A stretch of 16,955 nucleotides of DNA from the IMG/VR virus record IMGVR_UViG_2740892423_000028, positions 1-16,955 of that record; one strand, given 5' to 3'. Source of the stretch: a virus (lineage: Duplodnaviria; Heunggongvirae; Uroviricota; Caudoviricetes). The notes under the pieces were generated by a model that was not told the DNA's origin, made no database searches, and saw nothing but the letters and a program-made list of their open reading frames with translations. This document shows, piece by piece, positions 1,027 through 14,102 of the stretch. The translations under genes were made by a program, and so were the position numbers. The number at the start of each line of letters is the position of its first letter. Within the stretch, counting starts at the first letter, position 1.

Positions 1027-1057
1027 CTTGGAATTACTTGGAATATTTTCTTGGAAT
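1027..1057 (+). repeat. Three direct repeats CTTGGAAT at 1027, 1037 and 1050; candidate arm-type integrase binding sites
   Basis: Seen directly; spacing 10 and 13 nt, between the tRNA 3' end and overlapping the integrase stop codon (the tandem copy also encodes the last residues of Int). Confidence 0.35.
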
Positions 1058-2059
1058 ATTTTCAGGTAACGGGACATCAAGTGTCGGTGAAACTTTAACC
1101 TTCCTGTCATAGATTAGCACTTGCCCCTCGGTTTTGTGACCAGAGAAAAGTTGCTTATCCCGACTGCTTCCTTCATAGTCTGAAATTCCTTTCGCCTTCA
1201 GATCATGAAAGGTGAAGTCGGTTAAAATACCTGAAATTTTGCCTGCGCGATTTCTTGCTTCTACCCACATTTCGTTAAAGCCTTTGTACATATATCGGTT
1301 GCCGTATTGATTGCTGATTACATAGGCGGATTTTGGTAACTGTTTTGCTTTTTCGATCGCCGCCTGTAATCGTGGACTCCATGCTTTTATCTGTTTTTTT
1401 CCTGTTTTCCCTTGCTGGATAAAGATCCCGTCGTTTCCAATCTGCTCCCATTTCAGCGATAACACATCGGAAACCCTCGCTGCACACAGATAGGCAATTT
1501 CCATTGCGATAAAAACAGGAAGAGGTGCAACGCTTAATACTGCCTGGTATTCTTTGTCGGTTACATATCGTTCGCGGTTTTTGGCCTTGAATTTACTTAC
1601 ACCTGCACATGGGTTAGCCTTCACGAACCCTCGCTCATACCCCCAACTGTAAACACGGGACATACTGCTTTTTTCATGGTTGGCTTGCGTTTTACTCTGT
1701 TCCCCTCTTTTGTCCATGTATCGACGGATGTGTTCTGGTTTTATGGAATCCGCTGGTACTTTACCGAATACGGCAAGCAACTTTTTTTGATGTTGCAGAT
1801 AATCTTTTTGTGTTCTTGGACTGAGGTCACTGTAATAGGCGCTGGCGAGGAATTTTTCCCACAAGCGACCGAATGTCATTGCACGATCGCGATTATTTAC
1901 AGTTTCCTCATACTTTTTCCATAAAGCAGCTAAACCATCCTTGATGGCGGTTAGTGTGACAGATTCTCTGGATGTTGGTTTCCATACATAACTATATTTA
2001 TTTGGGTATACATTTGGAGGTAATTTTTCGTGTTCAGGATTTTTCCTTCGTCTTCCCAT
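1034..2059 (-). CDS. Phage tyrosine integrase (site-specific recombinase)
   Basis: 341-aa ORF next to the tRNA, facing it; C-terminal H..R / H..Y-type catalytic region (FHDLKAKG ... SGHKTEGQVLIYDRK); start ATG overlaps the upstream gene stop by 1 nt. Confidence 0.9.
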   Translation of the reverse strand: MGRRRKNPEHEKLPPNVYPNKYSYVWKPTSRESVTLTAIKDGLAALWKKYEETVNNRDRAMTFGRLWEKFLASAYYSDLSPRTQKDYLQHQKKLLAVFGKVPADSIKPEHIRRYMDKRGEQSKTQANHEKSSMSRVYSWGYERGFVKANPCAGVSKFKAKNRERYVTDKEYQAVLSVAPLPVFIAMEIAYLCAARVSDVLSLKWEQIGNDGIFIQQGKTGKKQIKAWSPRLQAAIEKAKQLPKSAYVISNQYGNRYMYKGFNEMWVEARNRAGKISGILTDFTFHDLKAKGISDYEGSSRDKQLFSGHKTEGQVLIYDRKVKVSPTLDVPLPENIPRKYSK

Positions 2060-2320: not shown

Positions 2321-4783
2321 TTAAAAATCAGCCTGATTCGGGATCAGTTTTTGCCAGATTGCTGAAACGTATTTTGCCTGGTGACGGGCGTCATCAAGTG
2401 CATTGTGGCGCACGCCTTCGAATGGAATAACGGTTCTGGCATCAAAGTCGATTGTTTTTCCCAGCTCAACGATTGTGCGTACATCGCGATCGTTGTGGTA
2501 GCGCCACGGGCAGGGGATGTCCAGACGTTCGTATGAGATGCGCAAAATTGCGTTATCGAAAGTTGCACCATTACCCCATACCTGAACGAATTTTTCATCT
2601 GAGTATTCGTTGATGAACTCCCGAAACTGCGAAAGGGCATCCTTCAGTTTTACCTGGTCTGTTAAAATGGCAGCTCTGGCTTCACTGGACTGCTTCAGCC
2701 ACCATTCGATGGTTCCACCGTCAGGAACAGCCCCTGTATTCATTGCGTCAGTCAGACTGATAACGATATAAAATACTGGCCCGATTTCCCCTGTTTGTGG
2801 GGCGAAGAAAACCGCACCAATAACCACGATGGGCGCATTGGTGTTGGTTCCCATTGTTTCAATGTCGATCATCAGGTGGTACCACACTCTGCTGGTGGAT
2901 GTGATAACGTGATGACCGTTCACCGCAATTAAGGGATCTGCCGTCCCGCCAGTTTCATTATCGCTGGCGTGGTCCTGAGCGCTGCCAGCATTCTCCTTGT
3001 GTGGATGTTCAGCGCCTTCCATTTCCTTCGGATCATTTTCCTGAACTTCAACCTGATTCTCTTCATCGAATGTTTCCTGGTATGTTGCGTCGCCCATCAC
3101 CGCGCCACAATCAGGGCAGTTGCCGCCACCGCTCTGACCGCAGGCGGTGCAGACTTTTTCCGCTTCCTGTTGCGCTACTGGCTCAGGTTGTTTCGTTTCT
3201 GGCTCGTTTTGTAACGCATTTTGGCTGTTTTGTTCCGCTTTCTGGTCGTTCTGTTCCGTTTCTTGCTGGTTCTGATTCACTGAATCGCGGGTTTCAATCC
3301 CCTTCACCCATTTCGGATCATTCGGGTCGCTAATCCCTGCAACAAATTCACCACGTGATACAGCAAGCAACTTATTGGCATCAGGCTGGTTGATATTGGC
3401 TGCCTGCATAATTTTGTTTACTTCGTCAGCGGTAACTTTTACCTGATTAACCGGATCTATCTGCGCCTGAGTATCCAGCGATTGCGTGTCCTGGCGATGT
3501 TCAGTTGTATCCGGCTCCATTGCTTCAGTCGTTGCCTGTTCATCTGCCATTGCGTCAGACGGTTGTGATTTTTCCTCATTATTTTTTTCTTCTTCTGTTT
3601 CGTGTTTAGCAGCAGCCAGTTCGCGGTTAACTTCTTCCAGGATATCTTTTTCCGGTGTATGTCGTGCAGCAGCGAGAGTTTCCTCGGTAGGATTCTCGTG
3701 ATCAGTCTCCGTTAAATTGGCGTTGATATACCCCTGAAGGCGTCCCGGGTAATGATAAAACTCAGGGTGTGCGCTCCGGATAAGTGCAAAAATAGCGGCA
3801 CGGGAATAATCCAGGATACCCGGGATTGCGCGAAGTGCTGCGGACCATTCTTTGAACGGACTTTCTTTCTTCCGGACGACTTCTTTTGCGCGACGATAAA
3901 CGCTGCCCGGAATTTCATAAATATTAAAATCCATCGGAAGTGTGGCTGCTGCAATCTCCACATCCAGCGTATCGAAGGTGTGTACTAAATTCGGATTGCG
4001 ATCGGTTTTGTTCCCGCCGCCAGCATTAGCACCGGAAGCCGTGCGGGTGATACGTGAAACACGATTTCCCTTCATCCACTCTTTTGTAAGCAGACCTCGA
4101 TCGGTGTAGTCAGCGCCCAGGTATGCTTCGAAAAAAGCGGTCATCAGTCCCAGGTCTGAATTACCAGGATTAGGGAAAACTTTGTCAGTGTCGCGTACCA
4201 GTTTGTGGAGATCGCGAATTTCCAGTGGTTCGAGTTGCGCTGCTTTATTTGAGATGGCCAGCGCGGTAACGGCGGGAAGTTTTTCATCCTGTGCGTTATG
4301 TAATGCGCGCAGTTCGTCCCGCGAAACGTGCGTGATCGGTTTTTCGCTGTTGTGTTGCGCCAGCCATCGAACAGGCAGAATCTGACCTGAAACTGGCAGG
4401 AGCATATTCTCCTCAATCTCAGTCATGTCTTCACCGTTGACGTTGGTATTGTCAGTGCTGGCTGGTTTGTCCTGAACAGAGGGCGCGATAAGTACCATTG
4501 TGATACCATCTTCCCCGCCTTTTTCGTATCGGTTGCAGAATTCGGTATCAAACACGCCTTCCGGAGGAAGGTCATTCACAACGGGTAAATGGACGCGAAC
4601 AGGTTTTTTAAAATCCTCTTCGTCAAATCCGGCATCGTCCATTGCGACAACACCGCGTGATATTGCAATCGATAATTTTTTTGCTGTGCGCCAGTAAAAA
4701 CCGCCTTTAATCCCAAGGCGTTTTCTGACTTTGTCATTTTTGGCTTCGTAATATAGTGCAATTTCTTCTTTATCAGCGCTCAT
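2321..4783 (-). CDS. Large phage exonuclease protein (YdfE / exodeoxyribonuclease VIII-like) with a C-terminal DEDDh 3'-5' exonuclease domain
   Basis: 820 aa; C terminus carries the Exo I-III motifs [20 protein letters not shown] and [13 protein letters not shown]; central CxxC...CxxC zinc ribbon ([16 protein letters not shown]); acidic/Gln-rich low-complexity middle; GAGG RBS 8 nt upstream of the ATG at 4783. Confidence 0.85.
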
Positions 4784-6713: not shown

Positions 6714-6869
6714 TCACTCACCTGAATTTCTTTCCAGCCAGCGACGCGCGCCAGATTCGGTTTTAAACGTTTTGCTTTTGGTATATGTCATCGCGGTGAA
6801 CGTACCGTCCTGGTTGGGGAACACGCCACATACCAGAGATTCGCTGTTGCCAAGATCGATAGTATCCAT
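6714..6869 (-). CDS. YdfA/YdaF-like (DUF1391-like) 51-aa protein
   Basis: Internal Met MDTIDLGNSESLVCGVFPNQDGTFTAMTYTKSKTFKTESGARRWLERNSGE with a GAGG RBS 5 nt upstream; the ORF-track entry 6714..6950 (78 aa) is an alternative longer start. Confidence 0.55.
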   Translation of the reverse strand: MDTIDLGNSESLVCGVFPNQDGTFTAMTYTKSKTFKTESGARRWLERNSGE

Positions 6870-7046
6870 GCTGACCTCATTTCCCCTTAACGCCGGGGTA
6901 GCGGAACAAAAACCTGCTGCATAGTTATTAAAGTTGAACCCTGCCGTCATGTTCTTACGCCTCGGGCTGGCTACTTAACCCCTGACCACTGCCTGGTAAC
7001 TCGAAGTATTGCCCTGCGTTCTGTGGGACGGGGTGGGTTGGTTGAT

Positions 7047-7110
7047 ATGATGTACTTTTTGTTCACTAATGTAAAGTACTTTTAGTACATTTTATGAGAA
7101 ATAAAGTACC
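7047..7110. promoter_or_regulatory. Cluster of four GTAC-centred operator-like motifs with a candidate leftward promoter (pL / dicB-promoter analogue)
   Basis: GTAC cores at 7052, 7076, 7085 and 7106, including the perfect palindrome AAAGTACTTT at 7073-7082; on the minus strand a -35 TTTACA (7070-7075), 17-nt spacer and a weak -10 CATCAT (7047-7052). Confidence 0.4.
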
Positions 7111-7163
7111 AGGAGGGGGGGAGGAGCATAAACCCGGAGGGAAGTTACCGGATTTATGCAGAT

Positions 7164-7583
7164 TCAGGAGGCTTTTTGTTTTTTCTTTCGCGCTAATTCT
7201 TCATAAATTGCGTTGTACTTCTGTTTTTTCTCCTCAAGAGTTTTTAAAAGTTCATCAGTTTCACTGTCAGGGAGTTCATCAAGAAGTTCAATGATGATTT
7301 TTTGCCTCGGACTTAACTCCTGATAGAAACGCAGGCTTCCGCTTTCTTCAGTGTCCTCCCCCAGAAGGTAAGTTGGTGTTGTTCCGATAAGTGCTGCCAA
7401 TTCTTTCAGTTTCTCTCGACGGGGAATTGTCTCTCCATTAAACCATTTACTAACCGCTTTGGGTGTTAGCTTCATTCGACGGGCAATTTCTGCCTGCCTT
7501 CCGTGTTGTTCAAAACCAGCATTATCACAGGCTAGCGCAAGCCTGCTGGCGAACTCTTTACGCGCTTCATCTTCATGAACCAT
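7164..7583 (-). CDS. DicA/RacR-like HTH (XRE family) prophage repressor
   Basis: 139 aa; N-terminal HTH (QAEIARRMKLTPKAVSKWFNG); the C-terminal part (LSPRQKIIIELLDELPDSETDELL...) resembles my recall of DicA; divergent from the cro-like gene; no S24 peptidase domain. Confidence 0.85.
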   Translation of the reverse strand: MVHEDEARKEFASRLALACDNAGFEQHGRQAEIARRMKLTPKAVSKWFNGETIPRREKLKELAALIGTTPTYLLGEDTEESGSLRFYQELSPRQKIIIELLDELPDSETDELLKTLEEKKQKYNAIYEELARKKKQKAS

Positions 7584-7662
7584 AAGTTCAATGATATTTA
7601 CTATTGAATGTACTGTCAGTTCTGTTATATTGTGTACTCAAGGTTCACATTGTGAGGGTGAT
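7584..7662. promoter_or_regulatory. Divergent immunity promoters and operators between the repressor and cro-like genes
   Basis: Rightward -35 TTGAAT (7604-7609), 16-nt spacer, -10 TATATT (7626-7631). Leftward -35 CTGACA (revcomp of 7614-7619), 17-nt spacer, -10 TATCAT (revcomp of 7591-7596) ending 7 nt before the repressor ATG with no Shine-Dalgarno. Palindromes TTGTGTACTCAA (7630-7641) and TCACA-T-TGTGA (7645-7655); GTAC core at 7610. Confidence 0.5.
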
Positions 7663-7929
7663 ATGAGCCATACAACACTTGCAGATGTAATCAAAGCAGT
7701 TCGCGTTTCTGTTGTAGCCGATGTTTGCGGTGTCAGCCAAAGAGCAATCTACAAATGGATGAATAATGGAAAATTACCGCGCACAGAATATACAGGCGAA
7801 ACAAATTACGCTGAAAAAATTGCTCTGGCATCAAACGGATTATTTTCTGCTGATGCGGTTTTGACTATTGGCAGGATTAAGCCTACAGCGAATGAATCAC
7901 TGGCGGTGAACAATGATATTCACTCCTGA
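7663..7929 (+). CDS. Cro-like / YdaS-like HTH protein
   Basis: 88 aa from the ATG at 7663 with a GAGGG RBS; HTH segment VCGVSQRAIYKWMNNGKLP; divergent from the repressor. Confidence 0.75.
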   Translation: MSHTTLADVIKAVRVSVVADVCGVSQRAIYKWMNNGKLPRTEYTGETNYAEKIALASNGLFSADAVLTIGRIKPTANESLAVNNDIHS

Positions 7930-8464
7930 GCAGGCTCGCGAGGCTCTGGATGCCTGGGTATGCCGACCAGGAATGACGCAGGAGCAGGCGACGATATTAA
8001 TCACGGAAGCATTCTGGGCTCTGAAAGAACGCCCGAACATCGATGTTCATCGCGTCACGTTTGATGATGGCGCGGTTGATCAACGGGCGCTGGGCGTTAA
8101 CAGGGTGAAGATATTCGAACGCTGGAAAGCTATCGACACCAGGGATAAGCGTGAAAAATTCACGGCGCTGATTCCGGCAATTATGGAGGCTATCCGGATC
8201 AGCGATTTCAGGTTGTATTGTGAAATTACTGACGGAAAAAGCATTACGTACATGATCGCCGGGTTAAACAAAGAATATGGCGATGTGGTGGAGTCCGGGC
8301 TGCTTTTTGCGGATCCAGCTGTTGTGGAACGTGAGACTGACGAGCTTATAGAAAAAGCCATTGCTTTCAAGCGTGCGTATCGTCAGCAATACCAATATTA
8401 CTTTGCAGATAAACAAATGTCTGCCAGGGGTTCGTATGAGTATCGATGCACTACGATGGGCTAA
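7913..8464 (+). CDS. CII-like / YdaT-like protein
   Basis: 183-aa ORF overlapping the cro-like gene end; positional analogue of Rac ydaT and lambda cII. Confidence 0.6.
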   Translation: MIFTPEQAREALDAWVCRPGMTQEQATILITEAFWALKERPNIDVHRVTFDDGAVDQRALGVNRVKIFERWKAIDTRDKREKFTALIPAIMEAIRISDFRLYCEITDGKSITYMIAGLNKEYGDVVESGLLFADPAVVERETDELIEKAIAFKRAYRQQYQYYFADKQMSARGSYEYRCTTMG

Positions 8465-9890
8465 AAAGGTGAAAACCGGCAGTTCATCCAGTAAGTCAGT
8501 ATTGACCTGGCTTGCTGATATGTGCGGTGCCGATTTGTGTGCATACCCGTCTGTATCTGCACTGGCAGAAGTAACGGAGCTGAACAAAAAGACTGTGCAG
8601 GACAGCTTACGACACCTGATGGAGATTGGGTTAATTGTTGATACCGGTGAGAGAAAAGGCCGAACAAAGCAAATCGTAGTGTACCGACTTATCGGTGTAG
8701 AAGAAAGCGTTGCCGAGCCTGAATACACCCAAAAACGGGAGTCTTTAAAGGTGGGTAAAATTGGTACTGTTAATAAAAACAGTACCGAAAATGGTTATGT
8801 TTCAGCACAAAACAGCCCCAAAAACGGAACTCTTAGCTGCATGGAAAATAACCAAAGACACCCAAATTTTCCATCAAAGACACCCAAAAACGGATCACGG
8901 AACCCAAAGGAACCCAAAGATCTAAACCCCACACATAATGCACGCGAGAGTGCTCCGACCAGTGAGCAGGAAGTTTTGTCGTTACAGGCAGTGCCACCCG
9001 TATTCCTGGATGGCCTGAGCGAACCCATCGGAAAATTTCCGATGACCGATAGCTGGCATCCGTCACGGGATTTTCGACGACGGGCTGCGGTGTGGGGGAT
9101 GGCTTTGCCGGAGCCGGAATTTACACCTGCTGAACTTGCCGCCTTCCGGGACTACTGGGCAGCGGAGGGGAAAGTATTTACGCAGGTTCAGTGGGAGCAG
9201 AAATTCGCCCGTCACGTAAATCACGTCAGGGCGCAGGTTAAACCAGTCAGCAAGGGGGTGAGCCATGCAGCCGCACCAGGTGGCACCGCATCACGGGCAG
9301 TTCAGGAAATTCGGGCAGCACGTGAGCAGTGGGAACGTGAAAATGGATTTATCAGCGACGGAAACGGCGTGGAAGCTGTGGGAACTCATGGGGGAGGTTT
9401 ATTCGAACCGCTGGACCCAGAAGAACGGGGCCGCACCTNNNNNNNNNNGCTGGTCTGCCGCCAGTGCATGGACCGTTGCAGGGCAGGTGAAACATGGCCT
9501 CCGGACTTGGCTGAGTTTGTGGCGCTGATTTCGGAGAGCGGGGCAAATCCATTTGGTCTGACGGTGGATAACGTGATGGAGGAGTACCGACGCTGGCGCA
9601 ACGAGTCCTGGCGATACGACGGAAGCGATAAATACCCGTGGTCTCAGCCTGTGCTGTATCACATTTGTCTCGAGATGCGTTCAAAGGGGATTGAGCGCCA
9701 GATGACCGAAGGGGAGTTAAAACGGCTTGCAGAACGGCAACTGGCGAAATGGGCAAAGCATGTTGGTAACGGACTGAGTGTTCCACCCGTCCGTAGGCAA
9801 CTGGCAGCACCCATACGTCCTGCGGGACCAACGCCAATTGAGTTGCTGAAACAGGAATATGAACGCAGGAAAGCGGCAGGTTTTGTTTGA
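8436..9890 (+). CDS. Replication initiation / replisome organizer protein (N-terminal HTH, DnaT-like C-terminal region); interrupted by an assembly gap
   Basis: Starts at the ATG at 8436 overlapping the upstream stop (MSIDALRWAKKVKTG...); contains the N run 9439-9448, so the true length and frame continuity are unknown. Confidence 0.75.
   Translation: MSIDALRWAKKVKTGSSSSKSVLTWLADMCGADLCAYPSVSALAEVTELNKKTVQDSLRHLMEIGLIVDTGERKGRTKQIVVYRLIGVEESVAEPEYTQKRESLKVGKIGTVNKNSTENGYVSAQNSPKNGTLSCMENNQRHPNFPSKTPKNGSRNPKEPKDLNPTHNARESAPTSEQEVLSLQAVPPVFLDGLSEPIGKFPMTDSWHPSRDFRRRAAVWGMALPEPEFTPAELAAFRDYWAAEGKVFTQVQWEQKFARHVNHVRAQVKPVSKGVSHAAAPGGTASRAVQEIRAAREQWERENGFISDGNGVEAVGTHGGGLFEPLDPEERGRTXXXXLVCRQCMDRCRAGETWPPDLAEFVALISESGANPFGLTVDNVMEEYRRWRNESWRYDGSDKYPWSQPVLYHICLEMRSKGIERQMTEGELKRLAERQLAKWAKHVGNGLSVPPVRRQLAAPIRPAGPTPIELLKQEYERRKAAGFV
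9439..9448. other. Assembly gap (10 N)
   Basis: Run of exactly 10 n inside the replication gene. Confidence 0.95.
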
Positions 9891-13682: not shown

Positions 13683-13972
13683 GCTGGCCTGAAGCATTCA
13701 CAACGGTAGGAATTGCGATGGCGGTGGCGCTGGTGGTGTATTCGATTTGCCGATGGGGATAAAAACGGTTTGCGGGAAAAGGAGAGTTAAGTAGAATTGC
13801 TGCGGGTGCTTGAGGCTATCTGCCTCAGGCATGAACACCAAAAGGCAGATAGAGAAAAGCCCCAGTTAACATTACGCGTCCTGCAAGACGCTTAACATTA
13901 ATCTGAGGCCAATCCATGCTGAACACATGTAGGTTAGCCTCTTACGTGCCGAAAGGCAAGGAGAAGCAGGCT

Positions 13973-14102
13973 ATGAAGCAGCAAAAGGCGATGTTAATCG
14001 CCCTGATTGTCATCTGTTTAACCGTCATAGTGACGGCACTGGTAACGAGGAAAGACCTCTGTGAGGTACGAATCCGAACCGGCCAGACGGAGGTCGCTGT
14101 CT
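13973..14102 (+). CDS. hok: Hok/Gef-family type I toxin (HokD-like), 3' end lost in an assembly gap
   Basis: MKQQKAMLIALIVICLTVIVTALVTRKDLCEVRIRTGQTEVAV... matches my recall of HokD/RelF; AAGGAG RBS; the last ~9 codons fall in the N run 14103-14112. The ORF-track read-through to 14143 is an artefact. Confidence 0.8.

Follow-up and report, generated by a model that had tools for sequence, protein, structure and literature searches.

Putative HK022-type operators flank a chimeric DicA-like repressor gene in a Qin-like lambdoid prophage of Escherichia coli

Genomic context of the immunity region

The window, i.e., the whole stretch of DNA that was analyzed, was 16,955 bp in length and represented a lambdoid prophage of E. 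coli. Strain ETEC1730 matched it with 99.7% identity, and phages Tritos and vB_EcoS-666R9 with about 88%. Among 5,426 complete E. coli genomes, about 1,040 (~19%) contained a prophage of this type; they included O157, O104:H4, and O111 strains.

The repressor gene (7164..7583, minus strand) encoded an HTH_3 protein of 139 aa. Two genes of the plus strand lay to the right of it: a cro-like gene (7663..7929, 88 aa), the product of which had 61% identity with HK022 Cro over 71 aa (E = 3e-33), and a YdaT/CII-like gene (7913–8464) with a product 90% identical to YdfX of Qin over 93 aa. To the left, a YdfA/DUF1391-like gene (6714..6950, minus strand; 94% identity with Qin YdfA, 64 aa aligned) was the first gene of a leftward operon. 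This gene order—repressor, divergent cro-like gene, and leftward operon led by ydfA—is shared with Qin, the cryptic prophage of E. coli K-12 that encodes DicA and DicC and carries the promoter dicBp. Judging from sequence comparison, the immunity switch belongs to a Qin/Rac-like lambdoid prophage, and the backbone outside the immunity module is Qin-like. The RefSeq annotation contained nothing at the operator sites described below, and no paper reporting these exact operator strings was found in our literature search.

The repressor

Residues 1–75 of the repressor formed an HTH domain of the HK022 CI type and, as a tblastn search revealed, were 60% identical to HK022 CI (E = 2e-32). The recognition helix was nearly unchanged: TPKAVSKWFNGE in the repressor versus TPKAISKWFNGE in HK022 CI. 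The motif TPKA[VI]SKWFNGE was invariant across the family of repressor domains. After the residues YLLG, the alignment left the homologues carrying the S24 peptidase (HK022, Raoultella, Edwardsiella) and followed the DicA-type tail, that is, a flexible linker and a helical C-terminal domain. The S24 peptidase domain was absent from the protein, and the Pfam scan of the repressor gave HTH families only. In the AlphaFold2 model, the HTH domain occupied residues 1–74, a disordered linker residues 78–88, and a helical hairpin residues 92–138, both domains being modeled with confidence. A Foldseek search of this model against the PDB yielded weak generic matches of the XRE/SinR-like kind, none of them at an E value of 0.001 or better.

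The repressor and DicA shared 29% identity over 112 aa, and the C-terminal domains alone 36% over 50 aa. With the NCBIfam DicA model, the repressor scored 57.9 bits, which is below the subfamily cut-off of 101. Both proteins have the same architecture (short HTH_3 protein with a helical C-terminal domain); however, the recognition helix of DicA, SHVSVSQWERGD, differs from that of our repressor. The name "DicA-like", given to the repressor in the earlier note, is thus apt for the C-terminal half and the overall architecture but not for the DNA-binding domain, which, like the operators and Cro, is of the HK022 type. Taken at the level of sequence, the repressor is a chimera with the HK022 specificity on a DicA-type body. 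Since the S24 domain is absent, induction of the prophage via RecA-stimulated autocleavage is unlikely. The exchange of the C-terminal domain is the sole unusual point of the locus, which is otherwise a textbook lambdoid switch.

GTAC motifs in the intergenic regions

The tetranucleotide GTAC was found at positions 7052, 7076, 7085, and 7106 downstream of the repressor gene and at 7610 and 7634 between the repressor and cro-like genes, in agreement with the earlier note; the spacing of 24 bp, described there for the pairs 7052/7076 and 7610/7634, was correct in both cases. Over the entire window, GTAC showed no enrichment (39 copies against 34.7 expected). Locally, four GTAC were present in 7047–7110 against 0.48 expected (P = 0.0002, dinucleotide shuffles). 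Enrichment over shuffled sequence had been proposed as a check of the motif family, and it was indeed observed in the two intergenic regions taken together: six GTAC versus 1.6 expected (P = 0.0024, dinucleotide-preserving shuffles). A cluster of four GTAC within 64 bp was equalled in 3 of 300 shuffles of the whole window. The local enrichment together with the rarity of such a cluster in shuffles argues for more than chance, although only moderately.

Both intergenic regions were AT-rich (25–33% GC), and the cluster might be seen as a by-product of AT-rich promoter DNA arising by chance, which would fit the absence of enrichment window-wide. However, the P value of 0.0024 comes from local shuffles preserving dinucleotides, and the five motifs at the real sites are conserved across genera both in position and in sequence. 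As an explanation of the cluster, chance has a negligible probability, and for five of the six motifs it is already refuted. The GTAC at 7106 (7106..7109), by contrast, is best explained by chance; Tritos and 666R9 have AATG in its place and retain the other five motifs.

The 15-bp dyad and five putative operators

The sites were aligned on their common flank: ATGTACT, then four bases, then GTTCA. Each of the aligned GTACs had a partner 10 bp away; the repeated unit is therefore a dyad of 15 bp, TGWAC-N5-GTWCA. GTAC lies within the half-site of this dyad and not at the center of a palindrome, as had been supposed. Five of the ten half-sites contained GTAC, and the other five GAAC or GTTC. With at most one mismatch, six dyads occurred in 16,955 bp versus 1.67 expected, and five of these flanked the repressor gene, within regulatory DNA of about 110 bp on each side. 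The sixth (2583–2597) was located within a recE-like gene and is probably a chance occurrence.

Two of the five dyads lay to the left of the repressor gene: OL1 (7051..7065, TGTACtttttGTTCA, no mismatches) with the center at 7058 and OL2 (7075..7089, AGTACttttaGTACA, one mismatch) with the center at 7082. The half-sites of OL1 were conserved in Tritos and 666R9, while its spacer varied. Three more were found on the right: OR3 (7576..7590, TGAACcataaGTTCA, no mismatches, center at 7583), OR2 (7609..7623, TGTACtgtcaGTTCT, one mismatch, center at 7616), and OR1 (7633..7647, TGTACtcaagGTTCA, no mismatches, center at 7640). The centers of OL1 and OL2 were 24 bp apart, those of OR3 and OR2 33 bp, and those of OR2 and OR1 24 bp. 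The four left-hand motifs of the earlier note are accordingly reduced to two operators: OL2 contains two of the GTACs (7076 and 7085), one in each half-site, and that at 7106 is no site. The right-hand set comprises three members instead of two. OR3, the one missed, is a perfect dyad over the start codon of the repressor gene (7581–7583); it was overlooked because it contains no GTAC and overlaps the ATG. Five of the six GTAC motifs belong to a real family, which had been mis-defined and lacked one member; 7106 falls outside it, being not conserved and having no partner half-site. On the same grounds, the GTAC at 7106 was rejected as a fourth OL site or as OL3.

The model in which each GTAC centers its own short palindromic operator (four left-hand and two right-hand sites, every one occupied by a repressor dimer) has some features in its favor. 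The local enrichment of GTAC agrees with it, AAAGTACTTT (7073–7082) is a perfect palindrome of 10 bp, as claimed, and TTGTGTACTCAA and TGAatGTACtgTCA are partial palindromes. However, of the six sites, only 7076 had symmetry about GTAC beyond the core. TTGTGTACTCAA (7630–7641), described earlier as a palindrome, is not a perfect one: it matched in five of six pairs, with T opposite T at positions 4 and 9. The relatives with 88% identity have GCATGTACTCAA or GCATGTACTAAA in its place, so that the outer symmetry around 7634 is lost there. Two dimers could not be accommodated at the centers 7076 and 7085, which lie 9 bp from each other, and the GTAC at 7106 is not conserved. Moreover, OR3, which has the same sequence as OR1 and OR3 of HK022, is devoid of GTAC, and homologous loci alternate GTAC with GAAC or GTTC while keeping the 15-bp dyad. 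The GTAC-centered model is therefore highly improbable.

Conservation of the dyads in other loci

GTDB genomes were scanned with the alignment of the DNA-binding domain, and 17 loci were obtained from Shigella, Kluyvera, Enterobacter, Klebsiella, Escherichia, Salmonella, Pantoea, Arsenophonus, and a 1-kb contig deposited as Streptomyces. At 13 of the 17 loci (Shigella, Kluyvera, Enterobacter, Klebsiella, Escherichia, and the 1-kb contig under Streptomyces), dyads were present at each of the offsets 0, −33, and −57 from the repressor ATG. The other four (Salmonella, Pantoea, and Arsenophonus) had shifted offsets or two sites only. A dyad of the OR3 type at offset 0 was found at 15 of these 17 genome loci, and most of them also possessed a pair of dyads 24 bp apart downstream of the repressor gene.

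Phages of Klebsiella, Citrobacter, and Salmonella in which the domain was at least 62% identical had the same dyad pattern. Among the Enterobacterales loci and phages examined with a domain at least 59% identical, dyads occurred at the same offsets in nearly all. In Phi24B (933W-type) and Salmonella phage SI8, with domains 41–49% identical, only one or two partial dyad matches were detected.

The OR regions of 18 distinct loci could be stacked without gaps, and selection of motifs was not needed. A position weight matrix built from sites selected by pattern is partly circular, whereas the ungapped footprint is not. In the stack, half-sites were near-invariant (1.8–2.0 bits). The half-sites of OR1 were invariant across the 18 loci, and its spacer was variable (1.04 bits).

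Candidate promoters and RNA features

A consensus promoter scan of 6900–7700 revealed exactly three promoter-like sites, and the motif clusters overlapped all of them, as the earlier note had suggested for its candidate promoters. The pL-like promoter (7047..7075, minus strand) had a −35 hexamer TTTACA (7075–7070), a 17-bp spacer, and a −10 hexamer CATCAT (7052–7047) and would drive the leftward operon headed by the ydfA-like gene. In position it corresponds to dicBp of Qin and to HK022 pL, with the −10 and −35 placed as in X16093. OL1 filled the spacer of this promoter and touched its −10, and OL2 was located just upstream of the −35.

The PR-like promoter of cro (7604..7631, plus strand) consisted of −35 TTGAAT, a 16-bp spacer, and −10 TATATT and was placed as the annotated pR of HK022; its hexamers were conserved among the 18 loci. 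OR2 filled its spacer, and OR1 covered the start region.

The PRM-like promoter (7591..7619, minus strand) was composed of −35 CTGACA inside OR2, a 17-bp spacer, and −10 TATCAT abutting OR3. A TATNNT hexamer abutted OR3 at exactly this −10 position in all 18 distinct loci. The −35-like hexamer (CTGAYA) lay in the center of OR2, the spacer of which was unusually conserved (1.81 bits per position). The start of PRM is predicted at or beside the ATG, in which case OR3 would also cover it. A Shine–Dalgarno sequence was absent from the repressor mRNA, and the conserved −10 ended 7 bp before the ATG; the repressor mRNA is therefore probably leaderless or near-leaderless, like those of lambda cI and of paaR2 from CP-933P (PMC8630535).

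Directly 3' of the stop codon of the repressor gene, a hairpin of 12 bp was found (7127..7159, minus strand; −18.7 kcal/mol, z = −4.67). Its stem was conserved in relatives and its loop was variable; the hairpin probably serves the repressor transcript as a 3'-end or terminator element. The fold of the pL leader was insignificant (z = +0.65). The Rfam scan of the whole window identified only sok and a tRNA, none of them in the operator/repressor region.

Comparison with phage HK022

The annotation of HK022 in GenBank (X16093) includes five repressor-binding sites of 15 bp; the footprint details used here are those contained in this annotation and in PMC8053113. On the left, oL 2201–2215 (TGTACTTAAAGTTCA) was equivalent to OL1 in position and sequence, and oL 2225–2239 (AGTACCAATAGTACA) to OL2. 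On the right, oR 3000–3014 (TGAACCATAAGTTCA) was identical in sequence to OR3 of the window, while oR 3033–3047 (TGTACTATCAGTTCC) and oR 3057–3071 (TGAACCATAAGTTCA) were the equivalents of OR2 and OR1, respectively. The five sites thus corresponded one for one, with half-sites alike almost base for base and with equal spacings of 24, 33, and 24 bp. The overlap with the hexamers of pL and pR was also alike, and in both cases the third site overlapped the start codon of the repressor gene (cI in HK022).

Several differences were found as well. OR1 and OR3 are identical in HK022 but differ from each other in the window. The repressor of HK022 carries a LexA-like S24 peptidase, whereas that of the window has a short DicA-type helical hairpin. 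The place of cII is taken by the YdaT-like gene, and the left operon begins with nun in HK022 and with the ydfA-like gene in the window. The accessory operators of HK022, OL3 (TGAACTTTAAGGAAA, 53 bp from OL2) and OFR (TGTACTTTTAGTACC, downstream of cro), had no counterpart in the window: no dyad was detected in 7090–7213 at up to three mismatches or downstream of cro at up to two mismatches.

The correspondence with HK022 indicates that the five sites are very probably HK022-type operators and the region an ordinary lambdoid immunity switch. The suggestion of the earlier note that the motif clusters represent OL- and OR-type sets of operators serving the adjacent repressor is well supported by this comparison.

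Comparison with other prophage switches

The operator of DicA, Oc, has the sequence TTGTTAGTCATAACTAACAA (PMC3441716). An operator of this type (TTGTTAG-N6-CTAACAA) had no match anywhere in the window at up to three mismatches. CP-933P (PaaR2, YdaS, YdaT) and Rac (RacR, YdaS, YdaT) are lambdoid cryptic-prophage switches which, like that of the window, combine OR and OL sets with a repressor lacking S24, a YdaT-type analogue of CII, and a repressor gene that is leaderless (probably so in the window) (PMC8630535, PMC11879457). Their analogue of Cro is YdaS, an XRE-type HTH protein not similar to HK022 Cro. The operators of CP-933P are 18-bp repeats with the consensus GTTTAGTAA (PMC8630535). These PaaR2/YdaS repeats were considered as the operator family of our locus and rejected, their sequence being unrelated (PMC8630535).

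The switch of the window resembles that of lambda in the tripartite OR between divergent PR and PRM, in the paired sites about 24 bp apart, and in the OL set beyond the repressor gene. It differs in the operators, which have 17 bp and another sequence in lambda versus 15 bp here, in the distance between OR2 and OR3 (33 bp versus ~23 bp in lambda), and in the −35 of PRM, which lies inside OR2 here and beside OR2 in lambda.

Regulator recognizing the dyads

Cro and CI act on common operators in lambdoid switches; hence, Cro very probably binds the dyads too. A different proposal is that the dyads serve primarily Cro or another regulator, such as the YdaT-like analogue of CII, while the DicA-type repressor acts elsewhere. 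In most loci, an HK022-like cro indeed co-occurs with the sites. However, one locus without an HK022-like cro (L017) retains three OR dyads at the standard offsets, and two others without it (L026 and L028) retain two each, which shows that the sites track the repressor domain. The recognition helix of the repressor is essentially that of HK022 CI, which also speaks against Cro as the primary ligand. As for YdaT, its box TTGATTN6AATCAA (PMC9986795) was absent from the regulatory region, and the matches found, all at three mismatches, were at chance level. Besides the dyads, no other repeated motif was present in the two regulatory regions. We consider primary use of the dyads by Cro or another regulator to be improbable and regard them as operators of the adjacent repressor.

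Proposed mechanism and significance

According to the proposed mechanism, a dimer of the 139-aa repressor would recognize each dyad, with one helix-turn-helix per 5-bp half-site. Bound at OL1 in the spacer of pL and at OL2 upstream of its −35, the repressor would shut off the early-left operon starting with the ydfA-like gene. Binding to OR2 in the spacer of PR and to OR1 over its start would silence cro and the ydaT-like gene. OR3, located 33 bp further over the repressor ATG and the likely start of PRM, would be filled at high levels of the repressor, if the order of filling that we infer is correct, and would then mediate negative autoregulation; it is also the likely primary target of Cro.

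The spacing of 24 bp between centers within the pairs would suit pairwise cooperative binding, by analogy with HK022 and lambda. For HK022 CI, cooperative binding to adjacent OL and OR operators and looping between OL and OR are reported in PMC8053113 (citing Carlson and Little 1993). For the repressor of the window, cooperativity is an assumption: in HK022 CI it is mediated by the S24 domain, to which the C-terminal domain of our repressor bears no relation.

It is possible, although we hold it rather doubtful, that the combination of an HK022-type module (N-terminal domain, five operators, and Cro) with a non-cleavable DicA-type C-terminal domain has up to three consequences. Firstly, such prophages could provide SOS-independent immunity and cross-immunity to HK022-like phages. 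Secondly, pairwise cooperativity, as the strict conservation of the 24- and 33-bp geometry implies, could be supported even by the unrelated C-terminal domain. Thirdly, the repressor and region 4 of sigma might share the DNA of OR2 on opposite faces, which would apply to HK022 itself. Such occupancy is conceivable because the −35-like hexamer of PRM lies in the uncontacted center of OR2, in the highly conserved spacer. Lambda CII at PRE is a precedent for occupancy of opposite faces.

The by-eye reading of short palindromes, as this locus illustrates, can misplace the axis of a dyad. The present work provides a corrected operator map for an immunity type that roughly one in five complete genomes of E. 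coli carries. The chimeric structure of the repressor predicts cross-immunity with phages of the HK022 type and induction without RecA-mediated cleavage; these predictions bear on the stability of the prophages and on the control of toxic genes in dicB-like early-left operons.

Genomic Backbone and Accessory Elements

A YdaT-like protein (7913-8464), belonging to the PHROG 'CII-like activator', was 90% identical over 93 aa to YdfX of Qin, a cryptic prophage of E. coli K-12, and a YdfA-like protein (6714-6950) was 94% identical to Qin YdfA. These identities indicate a Qin-like prophage backbone, which, judged from its sequence, bears an HK022-type immunity module. DicF RNA was not detected within the window, in contrast to Tritos, a phage about 88% identical to the window, in which it was found.

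A tRNA-Ser(cga) gene (892-981) was adjoined by a 341-aa ORF (1034-2059, minus strand); if this ORF encodes the integrase, the tRNA-Ser(cga) site would be the attachment site. The immunity region of E. coli strain ETEC1730 is near-identical, but its prophage adjoins ompW. DnaT-like and lambda-P-like domains were encoded together in a single 509-aa ORF (8361-9890), whereas in ETEC1730 the two parts are separate genes; this may reflect a fusion or a frameshift difference. The late-early region contains a hok/sok module, marked by a match to the sok antisense RNA (13804-13978; Rfam RF01794, 118.6 bits).

Immunity Region

Regarding transcription from pL, the leader running from this promoter-like site to the ydfA-like gene (6951-7043) had about 92-99% identity across the listed genomes. 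Over 2,500 E. coli genomes matched the leader alone and no other part of the immunity region. Its 5' portion was C-rich and G-poor, and no significant fold was found in the leader (z = +0.65). The leader may be of a Rho-utilisation type, resembling that of the dicBF operon.

Directly 3' of the repressor stop codon, a 12-bp hairpin (7127-7159, minus strand; -18.7 kcal/mol, fold z = -4.67) was found, which pairs better on the repressor's strand, with G.U there versus C.A on the plus strand. In the phages Tritos and vB_EcoS-666R9, the stem was kept while the loop varied. Because the residues after the hairpin form a C-run in place of the expected U-run, it is not a canonical intrinsic terminator.

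Among 18 distinct operator regions stacked ungapped, the spacer of the predicted operator OR2 (7609-7623), in which the -35-like CTGAYA of the promoter-like site PRM sits, was conserved at 1.81 bits per position, compared with 1.04 for OR1. In all 18 loci, a TATNNT -10 (7591-7596) abutted OR3, a position implying that the repressor mRNA would be near-leaderless. OR3 itself (7576-7590) overlies repressor codons 1-3, and its dyad, TGAAC-ttATG-GTTCA, dictates the start Met-Val-(His/Gln); the N-terminus of the repressor is thus fixed by the operator sequence. The Met-Val start is nearly invariant family-wide, including repressors with the LexA-like S24 peptidase domain.

The DNA-binding domains of 933W/phi24B-type and SI8-type repressors were 41-49% identical to that of the window repressor. 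In both types a related dyad (CGTACTCATGGTTCA, CGAACTCATGGTTCA) nevertheless lies over the cI start codon; the matches concerned are at 300-314 of the phi24B locus (L011) and at 1438-1452 and 1494-1508 of the Salmonella phage SI8 locus (L010). The relatedness of these cI-start dyads suggests a common ancestry of the HK022 and 933W operator families.
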